Below are positions 2,458-15,520 of a DNA stretch of 64,000 bases, in pieces (the first letter of the stretch is position 1; the number at the start of each line of letters is the position of its first letter). Source of the stretch: a virus. The DNA is taken from IMG/VR virus record IMGVR_UViG_3300035698_004085, positions 1-64,000 of that record, one strand, 5' to 3'. The notes below the pieces were generated by a model, which was given only the letters and a program-made list of their open reading frames with translations, was not told where the DNA came from and did no database searches. The position numbers and the translations under genes are program-made.

Positions 2458-5400
2458 ATGAAAACCGGTGACGTAAGTACTCTTCTTAACAGAAACAAAA
2501 TGACAGCTAGACGAGATGCTATGAAACCTAAGCTAATCTCATCTGACCCATCAGCCCATAATAGGAAGATGGCTGCTGAAGTCCTTCCAAAAGGATCTAC
2601 CTTATCTCCATCTATTCATAAGAGCGGAGTAAACGGACCCTGGGGAGGACAAGCAACTATGTCAACGGGTGGTGGAGCTTCACAATTCCACACACAGCGT
2701 CCTTTGATGCCTGAGTATGATTGTTTCATAGAGGGAACTCTTGTTAATCTTCCTAACGGTGAGTCTAAGAAGATTGAAGACATCGTAATAGGCGATAAGG
2801 TTGTTGATCGTAAGGGTATGGTTCAAACAGTAGAACGTCAATGGAGTTCTGGAACTCCTGATACCCTCGTTGAGATAACTACGTTAAGTGGTCTTAAGTT
2901 TAAAACCACTGACAGACACAACTGGCCAGTTTGGGCTTGGGCAAGAAAGTGTCAATGCGGTTGTGGAGAAGATGTAAAAACGTTAGGTAAGCTGTATCTA
3001 CGTGATCATTACAAGACAGGGATGGCTACTGGTGGAGTTTCTATTGTAGGTGACCCAAAAAATCCTATGTCTAATAGGAAGCTCTTACCTGAGGGTTATG
3101 ACCCTATTAAAAAAATGAGGGCAGACGAAATCAGGAAGGGTGATTTCTTGATGATGCCTCGGTCCTTTGAGAAGATAAAGACAGCTACTTCTCTGGATAA
3201 AGCGAGGTTGCTTGGTTATTATATAGCTGAAGGTAACATTGATTATCACAGAACCGGAGAGATATACTCAGCTACTTGGACTTTTGGTATTCATGAAGAG
3301 TATACGTTTGCAAAGGACGTTCATGATATTTTAGAAAGCATGGGCATAGCTTCTAGCGTAGTCTCAGTCAAAAAGAATAAGAATGTTTGTAGAGTTAGGC
3401 TAACGAATGATAGAGGTAAGAACCGGAAGACTGTTGATGAACTTATTGAGTGGCTTGCGGCAAACGGTGGGCAAATTGCTGCTCATAAAAAATGGAGTAC
3501 AGAAGTATTAGGGTGGTCTTTAGATCTTAAGCTTGAGATGCTTAAGGGTATGATAAGAGGAGACGGTTGTCAACAATGGAGATCAACAAAAGGAGATAAG
3601 GGCGGTAACTCTTTTATTGTGTTATACACTACGGTGTCTAAGACGCTGGCTCATCAGGTTCAGCTAGGCTTAACCCAGCTAGGATTTCCTTCTTGCATAT
3701 CTACTTGGCATAGTGAAAAACGGATTATGAATGGTGGAAAGCTTGTATCTTGTGCTGAGAGATACGACGTTAGGGTTATTTCTGCATATTCAAAGGCTTT
3801 AGCCGACATAATTTGGGGATCTGCATCTAAGTCTGCTGAGCTAGAGAGTAAGAACGCTATCAGGGCTACTTGCATGATGGATGATGATTTTGTTTATTAT
3901 CCAGTTAAAGCAGTTAATATAGTTGACAACGATAGACCGGTATACAACCTTACTGTATCTGGAGATCATTCTTATCTAGTTTCTAACATAGCTACTTATA
4001 ACAGTCCTGACCGTCAATTTTATCCAGAAGATAGGCTCCAAGCTAATGCTTATTGGCGAATGTTTCACAAGTATGACCCAATCTTTGGTACAGCAATTGA
4101 CATGTATGCGTCAATGATGACTTCTGACTTCGACATTGTATTATCGAATGAAGAAGACTCCTCTATTAAAAATCAGTTAATGGACATGTGCGACCAAGTT
4201 AACTTCTTAGAGAAATTTCAACAACTAATCAAGGAATATCTAGTCATAGGTGAGTCTTTCCCCCATAACTTCTTCGATTCTGAAAGAGGTATTTGGAACT
4301 ACATCGCTTTCCACAATCCTGATTATATAGAAGTGCAAGACTCTCCCATTATTGACATGGAGCCGATAATTAACTTCTTGCCAGACGACCAATTAAGAGA
4401 GCTAATATCTTCGAATACTCCAGAGTCTCATGAAATTAGGAAAAAGCTTCCCTCTGAATTTGTTTCAAAAGTATTAGCCAGACAAAAGATAAGGCTTTCG
4501 CCCCTAAACTGTTCATTTGTTGCGCGAAAGTTACATGCCTATGACGAACGTGGAACATCTTTGGCGAGTAGGTTGTGGAGGATCTTTGCAGTTGAAGACG
4601 CAGTATATAGCTCTACATTAGCTCATTTTAGAAGGGCTAGCAGTCCCTTAAAGGTGTTGAAGCTAGGTGACCCGTCAACAGGATGGATTCCGTCTCCTGA
4701 TACAGAGCAAGAATTACTTCGTATGGTGACAGCTGCTGAGTTAGATCCTCAGTGTTTTGTTCCAGAGACTCCAATTACTCAGTCAGATGGCATTACCAAG
4801 TGTATTGGCGACTTAGAGTTAGGTGATGAGCTTCTAGATAAGAATGGTCTAAAATGCACCGTAGAGGCTCTTCAAGATGAGTATACGACTGAGTTAGTTA
4901 ATTTGAGGGTTGAGGGTTCTCCTGATGACCTTATTTGTACTACTACCCACAAGTGGTCTATCTGGGGTATTGACCGTGAGTATACAGGAGTTAGGTCAAA
5001 CCTAAGAGTAAATAGTATAAGATCTTATATGGAAAAGAGGGGTTTATCCCTCATTCAGAAGGTTACAGCAGACAAAATAAAATCTGGTGATTATCTTATG
5101 GTTCCTAGGTCTTTTGAGTCTTTTTCTCCTTCTGACTTTAACAAAGATAAAGCTAGGTTGCTAGGGTATTATGCTGCTGAGGGAAGCGTTTCTGATGTTA
5201 AGGGTACCTCACGTAAAGAAGGTCGTTTTTCTCTTTCTATTAAGGAGAGGTCTACTCTAGCTGTAGATATTTGTAATATTGTATATGATATTTGCGGTAA
5301 ACGACCTAAAATATACGATAGACCCCAAACTAATAGCTGCGAAGTTGCTCTAAGTAACCTAGCGTTTGCTGAGTTGCTAGATTGGTTGGAGCTTCATGTT

Positions 5401-7329
5401 GGTAGAGGTAGCCATACTAAAGTTTTGTCTCCTGTTTTGATGGGGCTTCCTTTAGAATATAAGAAGGAGTTTATAAAGGGGTACTTATTGGGGGACGGTT
5501 GCTCACATGATGAGTCTAAAAAAAGGGGTAATCGAGGGTCTGTTCATGTTGATGTAGTTTCTGCTTCAAGAAAGATGATAGAGCAAGTGAAGTTAATTTT
5601 TGCTCAGTTAGGCTACTATGCTGGGTATTGTAAAACGGCTGTTTCTTTAACTTCTTTATTTGGTGCTGGTAATCCTATATTTACTCTTAGAATATCTGGC
5701 AGGAAGGCTTGTGACTTAGCTTATGAGGTTTGGGGTAGGAATCATACGTATGCTAAGCGTGATTGTACCCATTGGTGGGTTGATGATGATTTTATTTATG
5801 TGAGAATTAAGTCAGTAAAAAATGTTGATTGTTCTGACGAACCTCAAAAAGTTATAAATATGACCGTAAGTGGCGACCACTCATATTTAGCAAATCATTT
5901 TGGAACTTATAATTCATGGATTGTTTATAATTATGGTGTTAATTTCGAGCAGTGGGGGAACGGAGAAAGAGCTGTCACTCTTTCTCGTGAGAATGATACT
6001 ATTGAAAAGGTTAAGCTATTAGCTCTAGGAATGTCTAAATCGTTTGTCGGCGGAGAGGTGACCTACAGTTGTTCTACACCCGATACAAAAGTTCTTAAAG
6101 CTAGTGGTCAATACCTTAACATTGACGAAATAAAGGTTGGGGATAAAGTTGTAGACCGTTTTGGTAATCCCCAAGAGGTTACCAATTTCTTTGAATATCA
6201 TTCTCCTGACAAACTTATTAAAATTACTACATGTAATAATAAAGAGTTGTTATTAACGGATAATCATAATCTCCCAATTATGCGTGGCAGCGGTGACATA
6301 TTAAAACTTCAGTCAAAGGATGTTGAGGTTGGTGATTATCTTATGATGCCTCGTTGTTTGGTGAAGTCTTTATCAGAAGAGGACATGGGTAAGTGTACGT
6401 TAACTCTTTATGAGAATAGTGTTTGTTCTACAAAGGTTGAGAGTGAGAGTCTTGCTCTACATTCTGAGTCATTATTAACTCAAGCTGGTTATGCGAGCTT
6501 TACTGAAAAGGTTGGGGATACTTATTATGTTTATCGTGATGATGACGCTCCTCATATTATTAAAGATGATGACTATTTATATTTGCCAGTTAAGTCTGTA
6601 GAAGTAATTGATACGGATAAAGAAAAGTATCCTTATGTTTATAGTTTAACGGTTGCAAATACCAATAGCTATACACTTAATAACTTGGCTTCGTATAATT
6701 CCGCCAAATCTGGATTACAGGTATTTCTTAGAAGACTTCTAAATATGAGACAATTTTTTGAGTCATCTTGGATAATGCCAAAGTTTTTCCAACCTATAAT
6801 TGAGATTAACGATTGGCAAAAGGGAACTCCAGCGGAAGTCAATCACAGGATAAAGATTAAGAGGACTGCTCAGGAGGCTGATGCGCTTGGGTTGTTGATT
6901 AAGCCTAAGTTGATTTGGCGCAATAAGTTAGATCCGAAGGTAGATTCAGAGACTCTTCAAGCTTATTTACAGTTGAAGAATTTAGGGTTTATTGTTTCGC
7001 CAGATTCGGTTGGCGCAGCTGTTTCCTTAGATTGGCGAGATGAGTTAGCAAAGGATGCTAAGGCGTTTAAGGAGCGTGAGGAGATTCTTACTAAGCAACT
7101 TGGTCCAGAGCTTAAGTCAAAGTATGACGCAAAGAACCAAGAGGGGGCTGGAGCCAAGCCTCCTGGGGCAGCAGGTAGTGGTGCGGCTCCTCCTGGGGCA
7201 GCTGGTGGTAAGAAGCCCCCTGGTGGTCAACCGGGCGTTAGCAGTCCTCCTGGGAGTTCTCCTGAGGAGAGTGGTTCTGGTCCTTCAGATGAGTCGATTG
7301 ATTCGCCTGGAAGTATGGGAGGGATGTAG
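2458..7329 (+). CDS. Portal protein precursor with three inteins (about 599 aa after splicing)
   Basis: Exteins carry portal-like motifs (YDPIFGTAID, EYLVIGE, RGTSLASR, PLKVLKLGD) and a G/P/S-rich tail; lies upstream of MuF-like, protease, scaffold and capsid genes. Confidence 0.8.
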   Translation: MKTGDVSTLLNRNKMTARRDAMKPKLISSDPSAHNRKMAAEVLPKGSTLSPSIHKSGVNGPWGGQATMSTGGGASQFHTQRPLMPEYDCFIEGTLVNLPNGESKKIEDIVIGDKVVDRKGMVQTVERQWSSGTPDTLVEITTLSGLKFKTTDRHNWPVWAWARKCQCGCGEDVKTLGKLYLRDHYKTGMATGGVSIVGDPKNPMSNRKLLPEGYDPIKKMRADEIRKGDFLMMPRSFEKIKTATSLDKARLLGYYIAEGNIDYHRTGEIYSATWTFGIHEEYTFAKDVHDILESMGIASSVVSVKKNKNVCRVRLTNDRGKNRKTVDELIEWLAANGGQIAAHKKWSTEVLGWSLDLKLEMLKGMIRGDGCQQWRSTKGDKGGNSFIVLYTTVSKTLAHQVQLGLTQLGFPSCISTWHSEKRIMNGGKLVSCAERYDVRVISAYSKALADIIWGSASKSAELESKNAIRATCMMDDDFVYYPVKAVNIVDNDRPVYNLTVSGDHSYLVSNIATYNSPDRQFYPEDRLQANAYWRMFHKYDPIFGTAIDMYASMMTSDFDIVLSNEEDSSIKNQLMDMCDQVNFLEKFQQLIKEYLVIGESFPHNFFDSERGIWNYIAFHNPDYIEVQDSPIIDMEPIINFLPDDQLRELISSNTPESHEIRKKLPSEFVSKVLARQKIRLSPLNCSFVARKLHAYDERGTSLASRLWRIFAVEDAVYSSTLAHFRRASSPLKVLKLGDPSTGWIPSPDTEQELLRMVTAAELDPQCFVPETPITQSDGITKCIGDLELGDELLDKNGLKCTVEALQDEYTTELVNLRVEGSPDDLICTTTHKWSIWGIDREYTGVRSNLRVNSIRSYMEKRGLSLIQKVTADKIKSGDYLMVPRSFESFSPSDFNKDKARLLGYYAAEGSVSDVKGTSRKEGRFSLSIKERSTLAVDICNIVYDICGKRPKIYDRPQTNSCEVALSNLAFAELLDWLELHVGRGSHTKVLSPVLMGLPLEYKKEFIKGYLLGDGCSHDESKKRGNRGSVHVDVVSASRKMIEQVKLIFAQLGYYAGYCKTAVSLTSLFGAGNPIFTLRISGRKACDLAYEVWGRNHTYAKRDCTHWWVDDDFIYVRIKSVKNVDCSDEPQKVINMTVSGDHSYLANHFGTYNSWIVYNYGVNFEQWGNGERAVTLSRENDTIEKVKLLALGMSKSFVGGEVTYSCSTPDTKVLKASGQYLNIDEIKVGDKVVDRFGNPQEVTNFFEYHSPDKLIKITTCNNKELLLTDNHNLPIMRGSGDILKLQSKDVEVGDYLMMPRCLVKSLSEEDMGKCTLTLYENSVCSTKVESESLALHSESLLTQAGYASFTEKVGDTYYVYRDDDAPHIIKDDDYLYLPVKSVEVIDTDKEKYPYVYSLTVANTNSYTLNNLASYNSAKSGLQVFLRRLLNMRQFFESSWIMPKFFQPIIEINDWQKGTPAEVNHRIKIKRTAQEADALGLLIKPKLIWRNKLDPKVDSETLQAYLQLKNLGFIVSPDSVGAAVSLDWRDELAKDAKAFKEREEILTKQLGPELKSKYDAKNQEGAGAKPPGAAGSGAAPPGAAGGKKPPGGQPGVSSPPGSSPEESGSGPSDESIDSPGSMGGM
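2722..4002 (+). mobile_element. Intein 1 in portal with LAGLIDADG homing endonuclease (427 aa)
   Basis: Starts CFIEGTLV; block B TTDRH; LAGLIDADG-like LLGYYIAEG and MLKGMIRGDG; ends HSYLVSNIATYN followed by Ser. Confidence 0.9.
4753..5913 (+). mobile_element. Intein 2 in portal with LAGLIDADG homing endonuclease (387 aa)
   Basis: Starts CFVPETPI; block B CTTTH; LLGYYAAEG and FIKGYLLGDG; ends HSYLANHFGTYN followed by Ser. Confidence 0.9.
6070..6699 (+). mobile_element. Intein 3 in portal, mini-intein with endonuclease remnant (210 aa)
   Basis: Starts CSTPDTKV; block B LTDNH; no LAGLIDADG helices; ends NSYTLNNLASYN followed by Ser. Confidence 0.85.
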
Positions 7330-11721: not shown

Positions 11722-12483
11722 ATGAGTCTTAGTACAAGAAGAGAAGCATTTCGTGTAGACACTGTAGCGCGTGGTATTGACCACCTGCGGACCCAGTACA
11801 CCACAGCATATGGCGATTACGTTGCAAATGCAACTACTACGTTCGATGCCGGTCAACTGGTGGACCTAAACAGTGATAGCGAAATTATTCAATCAGTTGG
11901 TGCCGCACCATTTGGTTGGACGCGATATAACAAGAACACTGGGTTCTATGGTTCTGTCGTTGGTGAGTACATTCAACTGAATGCACTAGCTGATACTAGC
12001 CTAGCGCATGCTAACGTTAGAGCAGCAGCTGGTGGGTTGCTTGGTGTTCGCGTTGCAGCAGCACTTACTGGTGCGGCTTATGCGGAAGCAACTGATTATA
12101 CAGTTACTTATGCTAGTGGTCTTATCAAGCGTCAAGTGGCACCCGGCGGAACTATCCCAGATGGTGGATACGTCTACGTTACTTATCAGTATACGCTGAC
12201 AGCTCTTGAGCTTGCTGATGATGGTCACAACTTCTGGAATCTAGACGACGACATTACTATTCAAGGTGGAAAAGTAACTGTCATTACTGGTCCCGCAACT
12301 ATTTACACAACTGCTTATGACCCAAGTATTACTTATTCTATCAATGATGCATTGACCGCAGGAACGACTGCTGAATTGCTAGCTGGAATGGTAACTGTGG
12401 GTGGAGCTGGCTTGGCTATTGGGTTTGTTATTCAGATTCCAACGCCTGCTGATCCTTTCCTTGGCATTAAGTACAGCGGCTAA
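11722..12483 (+). CDS. Head decoration / minor capsid protein
   Basis: Immediately before the capsid gene; GKVTVITG, YDPSITY..ND.L and PT.ADPFLG motifs; inserted DYTV.Y..G.I Ig-like module. Confidence 0.6.
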   Translation: MSLSTRREAFRVDTVARGIDHLRTQYTTAYGDYVANATTTFDAGQLVDLNSDSEIIQSVGAAPFGWTRYNKNTGFYGSVVGEYIQLNALADTSLAHANVRAAAGGLLGVRVAAALTGAAYAEATDYTVTYASGLIKRQVAPGGTIPDGGYVYVTYQYTLTALELADDGHNFWNLDDDITIQGGKVTVITGPATIYTTAYDPSITYSINDALTAGTTAELLAGMVTVGGAGLAIGFVIQIPTPADPFLGIKYSG

Positions 12484-12497
12484 TAGGAGGCTTTAAA

Positions 12498-13706
12498 ATG
12501 AAAAAGAATAATCCTTATCGTAAGCTTGCAAAACGAGCTACTAAGCCTGCTGCTTCTAAAAAAGCACCTCGTAGGCTAGCTGCTCGTCCGAAGACTCGGC
12601 TGCAATCTAAGAATGATGAACAACTGTTTGACGAGAGTGGTGCGTTTAACCCTCAGTCCTACGACCGTAAATCTTCACGGGGCGCGTCTGCAGGTAAAAG
12701 TAACCGTCGCATGTTTAATGCTAGTGGTGAGATTAATGCTCATGACAAGCGTGATGCGCTAACACAAATTTATCAGCTCTTAGGTAATGTTACTAAGAAG
12801 AATGCTGGTAGTTTGTCTTTCCACAACGCTGATGAGCCTTCTATTAGTGTTGACGAAAAGCGTCAGATTATGGCTGCTGCTCTTCGTGATCCTTCTGGTG
12901 CTGGATTCCATCAAGTAGGTCAAGAGCTTGCTCTCCCTATTAAGGTTATCCTTGACTATGAAGGTTTTGCTCGTAAACTGTTTAGGGTTCGCAAGCTAGG
13001 TCAAGCCGAGCTTTTCCGGGTACCCAAAGACATCCGTTCGGTTGCTTATATTATTGGTCAAGATGGTCAGACTCCTGAAGCTCGCATCAAGACTAAGTAT
13101 ATCACTCCTGAAGAGTTCAAGGTAACGTCCTTCCCGTCTATTGACATCCAGGACATCTATCAAATGAACTTCGACGTTTTGGAGCGTGCGCAAGATACGG
13201 CACGTCAAGAGATCGAACTCCAAGAAGACAAAGCTGGTATCAATATTCTGGATCGCGCTGCGACTACCATTAATAACGTTACTACTTTTGCTTCTCTGGG
13301 TGTTGGCGCTTTTGAAGACGTTCGCTATCAGGTTGAGCAACATCGTCTCCTGGTTGAGAATTTCTGGATTGCTCGTGCAGAGCTTTCTGACATCGTTAAG
13401 AATATGTCAACTGCGGTTGATCCTGTAACTGAGCGTGAGTTGATTCTCAGTGGTTACATTGGCAATATCCTTAATGCTCAGATTATGACTGCTGCTGGTA
13501 CAGGCGTTGAAGAAGTTATTCCTGCGGGGACCTTCTATGCGACTACCGGAAGTGATTATCTTGGTGAGATGGGTGAGCGAATTAGTCTCTTCTCCGAGCC
13601 TTACAATAAGTACAACCAACAGGAAACTGTTAAGGGTTGGGCGTTCGTAGAAATGATTGGTTTCGTTATTCCTAACTCCAAGGCAGCTGCTAAGGGTATG
13701 AAATAA
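12498..13706 (+). CDS. Major capsid protein (HK97 fold)
   Basis: PIK..LDYEG..RK, FKVTSFPSI and RAQD.ARQEI..QED motifs; strong SD AGGAGG; biased codon use; followed by a terminator; basic N-terminal extension. Confidence 0.85.
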   Translation: MKKNNPYRKLAKRATKPAASKKAPRRLAARPKTRLQSKNDEQLFDESGAFNPQSYDRKSSRGASAGKSNRRMFNASGEINAHDKRDALTQIYQLLGNVTKKNAGSLSFHNADEPSISVDEKRQIMAAALRDPSGAGFHQVGQELALPIKVILDYEGFARKLFRVRKLGQAELFRVPKDIRSVAYIIGQDGQTPEARIKTKYITPEEFKVTSFPSIDIQDIYQMNFDVLERAQDTARQEIELQEDKAGINILDRAATTINNVTTFASLGVGAFEDVRYQVEQHRLLVENFWIARAELSDIVKNMSTAVDPVTERELILSGYIGNILNAQIMTAAGTGVEEVIPAGTFYATTGSDYLGEMGERISLFSEPYNKYNQQETVKGWAFVEMIGFVIPNSKAAAKGMK

Positions 13707-13718
13707 TTAAGTCTTATT

Positions 13719-13775
13719 AAGTAAAGGGGTTGGGTGAGTTTCCCTCCTTTCTCTCACCCTTCCCTTTACTTTTTT
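13719..13775 (+). terminator. Intrinsic terminator-like hairpin after the capsid gene
   Basis: AAGTAAAGGG/CCCTTTACTT and GGGTGAG/CTCACCC stems, 14 nt pyrimidine loop, T-run. Confidence 0.75.
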
Positions 13776-13782
13776 ATTTAAC

Positions 13783-13824
13783 CCCTTGACTAATACTGGT
13801 TAAGGGAGTTCAGCGAAAGCTGGG
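13783..13824 (+). other. Two RNA hairpins directly before the PLMP-domain gene
   Basis: CCCTTGACTA-ATAC-TGGTTAAGGG (10 bp with G-U pairs) and TTCAGC-GAAA-GCTGGG (GNRA tetraloop), ending 3 nt before the ATG. Confidence 0.55.
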
Positions 13825-13827
13825 GAT

Positions 13828-14688
13828 ATGTCTAAAGAGAAAAATATTCCGGTCTTAGATCTCAGTGATCATTTTCTCTCATATACTTCTCCTGCTAAAG
13901 CTAGGCTTTTGATTAAGTCTGGAAGAGCTTTCGCGTTTAGCAAAGACCCCTTCATGATTAAAATGAGGGGAGAAGTGGAAGAGAACGCAATGAAAAGAAC
14001 TGTATCAAATCAACGAAGAGCCGTAGTCACAAACTTTACTAAATACTTTCAAAAAGAGCGTGAAGTATATGTGCAAAATATGGGTTCAACTCAGATCTCT
14101 CTAGCTTTTAAATTGGATGGTCAGGATACTTATATTCTGATTCCTAGAACTCGTAAGCCTTATAATCTTACTCAACATGTTCCTTTTATGGCTATTAAAA
14201 ACTCTACTGATTTCAGAGCTATTATTAACCGGAGAAATCCCCCGATTCTAAAGCTGATTGAAGAAGAGGAATTCCTTGAGTATTATGATAGATTAGCTGC
14301 TAGAAACTCTACTACGTTTGAGGAAGAGCTGTCAAAAGCTGAAGAGGCTCAATATGGTCTAATGGACAAGCGAGTTGTCGGTACTGAGAGAATAGCTCGT
14401 GAGATGGAGCAACAGCTTGAGAAGAAGATGGATGAATTAGAGAAGCCTGATTCAACTCATCCTCAAATAGTTGGTTTTTGTGCGAAAGCTGATAAAGAGT
14501 ATATGCCAAGGTTAAAGGCTGAAGACTTTATTGAAGAGTTAGAGGCTCTAGAGCACGAATTGTCTCCAGAAGACTGGGAATTCGTCTCTACAAAGGGTGT
14601 ATATAAGACTGTAAAGAACTTTGCTGCTAAGAAACTAGATGTTCTTACCTCGTCTGAAGAAGATGATGATCCCAACGCTGATCTCTAA
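13828..14688 (+). CDS. Protein with N-terminal PLMP/RRXRR-like domain fused to an uncharacterised phage domain
   Basis: IPVLD....LSYTSPAKARLLIKSGRA......PFMIKM matches the IscB/RRXRR N-terminal pattern; no RuvC or HNH motifs follow. Confidence 0.65.
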   Translation: MSKEKNIPVLDLSDHFLSYTSPAKARLLIKSGRAFAFSKDPFMIKMRGEVEENAMKRTVSNQRRAVVTNFTKYFQKEREVYVQNMGSTQISLAFKLDGQDTYILIPRTRKPYNLTQHVPFMAIKNSTDFRAIINRRNPPILKLIEEEEFLEYYDRLAARNSTTFEEELSKAEEAQYGLMDKRVVGTERIAREMEQQLEKKMDELEKPDSTHPQIVGFCAKADKEYMPRLKAEDFIEELEALEHELSPEDWEFVSTKGVYKTVKNFAAKKLDVLTSSEEDDDPNADL

Positions 14689-14709
14689 TAACTAATAAAA
14701 TCCTTCCCT

Positions 14710-14740
14710 TTTAAATCTCCTACAACTTTTCTGTTAAACT
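14710..14740 (+). promoter_or_regulatory. Phage-specific promoter motif, copy 3 (TTTAAA-N3-CCTAC-N11-TAAACT)
   Basis: Intergenic; conserved spacing. Confidence 0.7.
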
Positions 14741-14781
14741 AGATAATGAGATTGGTTTATCTATAAGGAGATTTACGCAAA

Positions 14782-15204
14782 ATGTCACAATATCTTGAAA
14801 CGACTAAAGTACTAACGATAGGTGTCGGCGCTTCAGACAGGATTTGGGCAGCTCCTTCGGGCGTGCCTGTTCAAAAGACAACTGTTTGGGTTCAAGCAAA
14901 AGCTTTGAGCGCTGTAGATATAGATTATGAAGTGTTTTTGGGTGGTTATTTTACTGTAGCAGCTCCTTTCACTTCTGGAGCTACTCATAGCGGTGGTGTA
15001 TCACAAGGTGCTGCGGCTGCGGTTGGGGGTGCCTCTACGGAATTATGCCATAAGGTATTTGACGATGCTTCTCATTTTCCTATTAACAATCCTAACTCTG
15101 TTTCTTTTCCAGCGGCATACGTTACTGAGTTTACGAATAACTCAGCAGGCATAGTAGAACTACACGTTACGTTCATTCAGCAAACTATTGGAAGTAACGT
15201 TTAA
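14782..15204 (+). CDS. Hypothetical, probable virion protein
   Basis: 140 aa beta-rich ORF with SD AAGGAG. Confidence 0.5.
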   Translation: MSQYLETTKVLTIGVGASDRIWAAPSGVPVQKTTVWVQAKALSAVDIDYEVFLGGYFTVAAPFTSGATHSGGVSQGAAAAVGGASTELCHKVFDDASHFPINNPNSVSFPAAYVTEFTNNSAGIVELHVTFIQQTIGSNV

Positions 15205-15214
15205 GGAGTTTATA

Positions 15215-15520
15215 ATGATTGAAGAAATACTAACTACTTACGGAATCTATATTGCTATTGTTTTTGTAATTCATTTTCTGATTTTAGGATTAAAGAAAAC
15301 CTTCAAATCTTTCTTTGAGGGTGACGTAGGGAATAAGATACTTTATTTTTTGCCTGTTCTTTTCGGTGCAGCACTTGGTTTATTCTTACCTGAAGAGTCT
15401 TTAAAGATCCAGCTCCTTTACGGAGCTGCGCTTGGGACAAGTGCTCAAACTATTTATACGTGGGTGACTAAGCTCTTTATAAAAAAGATGAAAGACACTG
15501 AAGTAGAACTGGAAGAATAG
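15215..15520 (+). CDS. Holin-like membrane protein
   Basis: Three hydrophobic segments and a charged C-terminus; ATG at 15215 follows AAGGAG. Confidence 0.5.
   Translation: MIEEILTTYGIYIAIVFVIHFLILGLKKTFKSFFEGDVGNKILYFLPVLFGAALGLFLPEESLKIQLLYGAALGTSAQTIYTWVTKLFIKKMKDTEVELEE

Follow-up and report, generated by a model that had tools for sequence, protein, structure and literature searches.

The N-terminus of a protein encoded by a large uncultured phage was identified as a genuine PLMP domain of the IscB/IsrB type that is not joined to a nuclease, and its gene stands directly behind a leader of tandem hairpins. The occurrence of both features together was confirmed to be well beyond chance. 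The gene lies in the window, the stretch of 64,000 nt that was analysed (positions 1 to 64,000 of IMG/VR record IMGVR_UViG_3300035698_004085). The source record is a complete virus genome of 175,002 bp with terminal repeats. To our knowledge, earlier descriptions of PLMP concern only the OMEGA nucleases IscB and IsrB, in which it is an accessory domain, and a literature search gave no paper on phage fusions of PLMP without a nuclease. Its role in IscB and IsrB is difficult to tell apart from those of the nuclease and the large omega-RNA. The natural family to which the phage gene belongs is large, with 169 clusters at 50% identity, and has PLMP, no nuclease and SD-bearing tandem hairpins directly upstream. 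The family is a minimal system for asking whether PLMP is a hairpin-binding translational regulator, which target it recognises and where the domain originated.

All long ORFs of the window were located on the + strand. Upstream of the PLMP gene, the region comprised an intein-rich portal gene, a head maturation protease gene and the major head gene (12498-13706). ORF 13828-14688 (+), encoding 286 aa, was separated from the latter by 121 nt, in agreement with the sequence-only reading, which had placed it right after the capsid gene. The same order was found in most close relatives, where the homolog was preceded in most loci by an open frame of 392-416 aa. Distant PLMP-bearing homologs did not follow a capsid gene and were preceded by HTH, zinc-ribbon or other genes. 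The portal ORF (window 2458-7329, 1623 aa) showed extra matches to an endonuclease family and to a fragment of a ribonucleotide reductase family, consistent with the intein insertions noted in the sequence-only reading. In the phage collection, blastn of 12400-15300 gave no match and tblastn had Virus Rctr197k as its sole match. Relatives of the PLMP fusion family were not found among the genome contigs searched, and the Atlas feature search returned no usable match. Feature positions are listed in Table 1.

Table 1. Positions of the capsid gene, the leader elements and the parts of the PLMP gene in the window.
Feature	Position	Strand	Basis
Major head (capsid) protein gene	12498..13706	+	phrog_2522 major head protein, E 2e-57
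Hairpin 1, putative intrinsic terminator of capsid gene	13719..13779	+	GC-rich stem and U-run
Conserved leader element (hairpins 2 and 3 and start codon), covariance model R1	13775..13836	+	59.4 bits, E 8e-12
Hairpin 2, predicted to sequester the SD	13780..13810	+	5' arm starts AACCCC; 3' arm holds AAGGGAG 13802-13808
Hairpin 3, CAGC-GAAA-GCUG GNRA mini-hairpin between SD and AUG	13811..13822	+	stable in isolation
Start codon of long (PLMP-bearing) isoform	13828..13830	+	first ATG behind in-frame stop; homologs align from residue 1
PLMP domain, residues 5-52	13840..13983	+	PF14239 28.2 bits, profile against IscB chains, fold match
Linker with predicted internal ribosome-binding region and internal start ATG 13990 (Met55)	13966..13992	+	conserved Met, low pLDDT
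C-terminal phage-specific part, also predicted short isoform	13990..14688	+	phrog_17686, E 2.5e-6

A PLMP domain without a nuclease

In the protein, a flexible linker (about 20 aa) connects the PLMP domain to a part of about 220 aa that is phage-specific. Pfam PF14239 (RRXRR) matched the ORF above its cut-off of 25 bits, with residues 7-57 on profile positions 1-51 of 174, and this was the only PF14239 match in the whole 175-kb genome. Among the aligned family members, 59 of 83 matched the same profile. Comparison of the family profile with solved IscB chains gave matches confined to the PLMP domain, with E 4.6e-11 and a near-colinear alignment for TbaIscB (9k30_A). An AlphaFold model (pLDDT 88.7) showed a beta-beta-alpha-beta-beta N-domain. 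In an all-against-representatives fold search, residues 5-52 matched the PLMP domains of TbaIscB, HfmIscB, OrufIscB and DtIsrB. Superposition on residues 1-49 of these IscB and IsrB proteins (chains 9k30_A, 9k2z_A, 9nvu_P and 8dmb_P) gave Z 6.2-7.0 and an rmsd of 2.0-2.3 Å over 46-48 residues, at 30-36% identity. The top nine rows of a Foldseek search were IscB/IsrB chains, and IF3 chains came next. The PLMP/RRXRR assignment that had been proposed from the sequence alone was borne out by profile and by structure.

An intact domain was retained in the fusion in 169 clusters, at identities as low as about 25%; 35 sequences were close relatives of the window copy. The tetrapeptide that gave the domain its name touches RNA and RuvC in IscB. 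It was replaced by FLSY in the window copy, as the sequence-only reading had seen, and in its close relatives, and L.P or LMP was retained in some distant members. The P-A-K-A-R-x-L-x-K-x-G-x-A helix motif and the P-F-x-I-x-L strand were retained, and the basic helix (AKAR.L.K.G.A) was conserved although its RuvC partner is absent. HNH families of Pfam had no match in ORF 13828-14688 at E up to 1. RuvC-I, -II and -III with the bridge helix were likewise not found, as the PF14239 match extended no further than position 51 of 174 and no RNase H-like match was obtained with the remainder of the model. The earlier statement that neither RuvC nor HNH follows the domain was correct. Rfam searches of 13000-15500 at E up to 10 returned no omega-RNA (HEARO) match and only chance-level rows.

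When residues 1-55 alone were used as query in a word-based search, no proteins outside the family were retrieved. Alignments restricted to PLMP were too diverse for locus scans, and a three-sequence alignment found one IscB locus. A closely related PLMP domain was joined to a PAPS-reductase-like domain (PF01507) in three further nuclease-free proteins of about 296 aa, P0204, P0241 and P0259. None of the 80 PAPS-reductase loci examined in IMG/VR carried PLMP. Two other candidates for new fusions, P0243 and P0268, were recognised as truncated stubs of IscB.

The part behind the linker was related to phrog_17686, residues 75-273 aligning with profile positions 21-221 of 225, and comprised a mixed alpha/beta domain, a helical domain and an acidic tail. 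The unrelated phage domain of the sequence-only reading was thereby assigned to a phage protein family, and no nuclease fold was seen in this part of the model. Two models were available, with pLDDT 88.7 and 91.6. Solved-fold searches of the C-terminal part yielded no convincing match. Generic helical matches reached up to Z 6.6 and were not meaningful, and neither were the Crp/Fnr sensor domains (Z 4.0 or less) and weak GINS rows obtained with the middle domain alone. The nearest predicted structures in BFVD were uncharacterised proteins of PaBG, Motura and BcepSaruman.

Homologs of the C-terminal 220 aa were present in the cultured jumbo phages PaBG (PaBG_00154, 112347-113018, L043), Lu11 (Lu11_0136, L050) and JA11 (JA11_207, L051). 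Unlike the window protein, all three had neither a PLMP domain nor a structured leader; they were preceded by a plain SD without hairpins (3/3 checked). Their match to the C-terminal part began within about 30 residues of the annotated start, based on the family profile and tblastn. The neighbourhood of the homologs was conserved and represented a replication/recombination cluster, with a putative RuvC-like Holliday junction resolvase (PaBG and Lu11), a convergent DNA primase (all three) and an exonuclease (PaBG and JA11). PaBG_00154 is not mentioned in the PaBG paper.

Hairpins of the leader

The 121 nt upstream of the ORF folded into three hairpins (z = -4.46), as had been described from the sequence alone. 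Among 49 + strand genes of the window, the initiation region (-50 to +3) was the most structured, with -20.5 kcal/mol compared to a mean of -6.8 (sd 3.6). The three-part layout recurred in related loci with different stem sequences.

Hairpin 1 was formed by stems 13719-13729/13761-13771 and 13732-13738/13753-13759 around a 14-nt loop (13739-13752). It showed -26 kcal/mol and z -5.86 and was followed by UUUUUUAUUU, with the U-run at 13772-13779. A GC-rich stem and a T-run were found at the equivalent place in most related loci; a consensus scan missed hairpin 1 because its loop exceeds 8 nt. Filling half of the gap, it is a putative terminator of the capsid gene. The loop carries CCUCCUUU, identical to an anti-SD sequence. 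Despite changes in the stem, this motif is preserved in about 12 of 19 related loci. It was shared with L001, L002, L003, L006, L008, L011, L012, L013, L016, L019 and L032 and was absent from the loops of L004, L005, L015, L022, L035 and L047. Pairing of this loop with the SD of the gene was rejected as a conserved feature, as it works in the window and fails in L001.

Hairpin 2 (-14.4 kcal/mol, z -3.48) showed compensatory changes in 10 of 11 pairs among 22 distinct sequences. The sequence-only reading had placed the SD within the GAAA hairpin; instead, AAGGGAG, the only well-placed SD, lies in the 3' arm of hairpin 2, opposite a 5' arm that resembles an anti-SD. The GAAA hairpin itself, hairpin 3, has 4-5 bp and fills the 19 nt between SD and AUG. 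Its motif occurred once in the window. In the alignment, 96% of its cells were paired and two pairs showed a compensatory change, with stems such as TAGC/GCTA, AGGC/GCCT and AGGG/CCCT in other loci.

RNAalifold predicted no pairs on a MAFFT alignment because the variable stem was misaligned, and a covariance model with realignment was used in its place. This model, R1, had one match per locus in 24 loci (E 1e-4 to 8e-12) and nothing else below E 0.1 in 262 kb. In the 175-kb genome, its single match below E 1 was the leader itself. The R1 alignment, which was fitted to the model and so favours the structure somewhat, had 82% of cells paired versus 30-49% with slid partners, and 12 of 15 pairs with compensatory changes. 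The covariation score of 0.351 compared with 0.146 in shuffles and was reached by none of 500 shuffles.

The idea that the domain co-occurs with covarying hairpins held for these 24 loci and failed in L024 and L026, where the PLMP domain was kept and the hairpins were absent. Other distant members had rearranged leaders that R1 did not detect. In L024 and L026, the PLMP gene started about 10 nt behind a small CxxC...CxxC zinc-ribbon ORF. The start region of L011 (266-340) was duplicated over about 37 nt, which gave rise to a short upstream ORF, MTSKNIPVLGSKWL, located behind the hairpin leader and ahead of the real start.

Internal start and predicted isoforms

Met55 was conserved in the long forms down to about 25% identity, within a linker that was otherwise variable and of low pLDDT, and was preceded by G-E-x-G-E/D. 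The glycine codons just upstream of this Met were GGA in 34 of 38 cases, versus 39 of 223 elsewhere in the same genes (Fisher p 5e-18, a value that overstates independence because the sequences are related). This codon choice places GGAGA six to eight bases before the internal ATG. An SD-like element, defined by a duplex energy with the anti-SD at or below -5 kcal/mol, preceded the internal Met in 18 of 22 genes and other in-frame Met codons in 14 of 151. In the window copy, the internal SD was the weakest of the set (-3.3 kcal/mol), and AGGGGAG was located 17 nt upstream. The possible second start at 13990 that the sequence-only reading had pointed out is a predicted feature of the family, namely a conserved AUG with its own SD, and is weak in the window copy.

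Upstream of the short forms of the protein in databases, the reading frame continued through the PLMP domain to an ATG or GTG start in 4/4 loci checked (L034, L035, L037 and L038); these short forms are explained by gene callers preferring the internal site. The public gene calls P0030, P0031, P0037, P0053, P0062 and P0066 started at the internal Met and lost the PLMP domain. Such calls often strip the domain from database entries. Judged from these sequence features, 13990 corresponds to an internal start that is conserved and served by a separate SD, so that two isoforms, a long one with PLMP and a short one, are most likely produced in the family.

Regulatory readings and known systems

In IsrB, PLMP binds the tandem terminal omega-RNA hairpins SL7 and SL8, and SL7 contains the SD of isrB itself and, according to the authors, could regulate IsrB expression (Hirano 2022, PMC9581776). 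The known role that the sequence-only reading had cited, contact of PLMP with the omega-RNA upstream, agrees with this published SL7/SL8 binding. The fold of the domain is IF3-N-like, and by packing against RuvC and TI it serves as a structural unit as well (PMC9581776). For IscB, Kato et al. report that PLMP recognises the terminal omega-RNA hairpins largely irrespective of their sequence (PMC9640706). The phage gene resembles these OMEGA systems in that its PLMP domain is homologous by profile and fold and is coded directly after tandem hairpins, the first of which holds the gene's own SD. The order of SD-bearing hairpin, small hairpin, AUG and PLMP corresponds to the SL7/SL8 arrangement. 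In contrast to the OMEGA proteins, the phage protein has no RuvC, bridge helix, HNH or TI, and neither a guide nor an omega-RNA scaffold of 200-400 nt belongs to it. It differs further by the FLSY tetrad, the fusion to an unrelated phage domain and the second, internal start.

The best mechanistic reading is that the long isoform represses its own translation via the leader. It is preferred by analogy to the binding of tandem SD-holding hairpins by IsrB PLMP, and we give it slightly less than an even chance. The PLMP domain of the long isoform would recognise hairpins 2 and 3 in its own mRNA, in the way that the terminal omega-RNA hairpins are bound in IsrB and IscB, and would clamp the SD in the paired state, so that synthesis of the long isoform is repressed. 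The short isoform would keep being made from the internal site, and the module would set a low, buffered ratio of long to short isoform. The hairpins and the PLMP coding region were apparently grafted in frame onto an older gene that retained its own start. In favour of autoregulation, the leader is conserved, covarying and unique in the genome, and the PLMP-less homologs have no hairpins. Several points speak against it. Two loci have PLMP without hairpins and distant leaders are rearranged, the tetrad is FLSY, the internal SD of the window copy is the weakest, and the SD is unpaired behind the hairpin in several IscB copies. SD-occluding hairpins are also common without any protein partner. 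The co-occurrence of domain and leader could rest on a single evolutionary event, as PLMP-bearing and PLMP-less homologs may represent two clades.

The main rival is a leader that acts without the protein. Hairpin 1 would terminate most capsid transcripts, hairpin 2 would occlude the SD and keep the long isoform low, hairpin 3 would serve as a spacer, and PLMP would do something else, such as making protein contacts or binding another nucleic acid. Formation of the 12-nt hairpin shortens the linear SD-AUG distance of 19 nt to about 7 nt, which fits a spacer, and a PLMP domain that persists in L024 and L026 without hairpins, or that packs on RuvC and TI as in IscB/IsrB (PMC9581776), fits a function apart from the leader. 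A leader independent of PLMP is harder to reconcile with its absence from the PLMP-less homologs, with a layout that copies the SL7/SL8-SD-PLMP arrangement and with a basic helix conserved despite the missing RuvC partner; we consider this explanation possible but doubtful. The domain might also bind a different RNA in trans and tether the C-terminal part to it, be it the terminator hairpin of the capsid mRNA with its CCUCCUUU loop, some other transcript of phage or host, or the ribosome, much like the IF3 N-domain. The loop motif kept in about 12 of 19 loci while the stem changes would agree with such a target, as would the IF3-N-like fold (PMC9581776) and the IF3 chains below IscB in the fold list. 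Since the genome has no second copy of the hairpin 2/3 element, the motif is missing in L004, L005, L022, L035 and L047, and the similarity to IscB PLMP (E 4.6e-11) far exceeds any to IF3, binding in trans is improbable.

Two further explanations concern the position of the gene. A small ribonucleoprotein of PLMP and its RNA in head assembly, the second option of the sequence-only reading, would suit a gene located behind the capsid gene in the window phage and most close relatives. This role was unsupported, as the PLMP-less homologs of PaBG, Lu11 and JA11 lie near RuvC-like resolvase, primase and exonuclease genes in replication/recombination clusters and distant PLMP-bearing members lie behind HTH or other genes; no fold link to a capsid, scaffold or decoration protein was found either, and we regard it as very unlikely. 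A decaying, functionless stub of an IscB transposon that landed behind the capsid gene is scarcely credible. Truncated IscB stubs do exist (L083 and L084), but the fusion is conserved with an intact domain in 169 clusters at 50% identity, the leader covaries, the intergenic gap is only 121 nt, and neither a RuvC-I remnant nor a HEARO/omega-RNA match was found.

Beyond autoregulation of this gene, the SD-bearing hairpins and the PLMP region may form an autonomous, portable cassette for translational feedback that is transferable in frame to unrelated phage genes, either as ancestor of or as spin-off from the 3' end of omega-RNA and the 5' end of iscB. We consider this conceivable, with the balance against it. 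If true, the original job of PLMP would have been the control of its own translation and not the support of a nuclease.

Phage T4 offers two comparisons. RegA, gp32 and gp43 are autogenous translational repressors that bind the initiation region of their own mRNA. The logic proposed here is the same, with the protein bound to its own initiation region and its synthesis limited, whereas the RNA-binding fold is unrelated and, by analogy, only the long isoform would be regulated. T4 genes 38 and 25 have hairpin-bridged ribosome-binding sites, in which a hairpin bridges the distance between a remote SD and the AUG. The phage leader likewise has an SD too far from the AUG in linear distance and a small stable hairpin in between. 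It differs in that the SD would also be buried in the preceding hairpin and that the downstream protein carries a domain of a presumably hairpin-binding type.

Among IscB loci, the SD was part of the 3' arm of a terminal hairpin in L052, L065 and L068, and in other IscB copies it was unpaired behind the hairpin. The SD-in-hairpin design is common to the phage family and some IscB loci and is not universal. On the leader of L052, R1 scored 13.5 bits, which was not significant. In this locus, a full-length viral IscB gene (485 aa) is preceded at 129-183 by a hairpin of 10 bp, purine-rich in its 3' arm, and by a UAGG-GAAA-CCUA mini-hairpin located 3 nt before the AUG.
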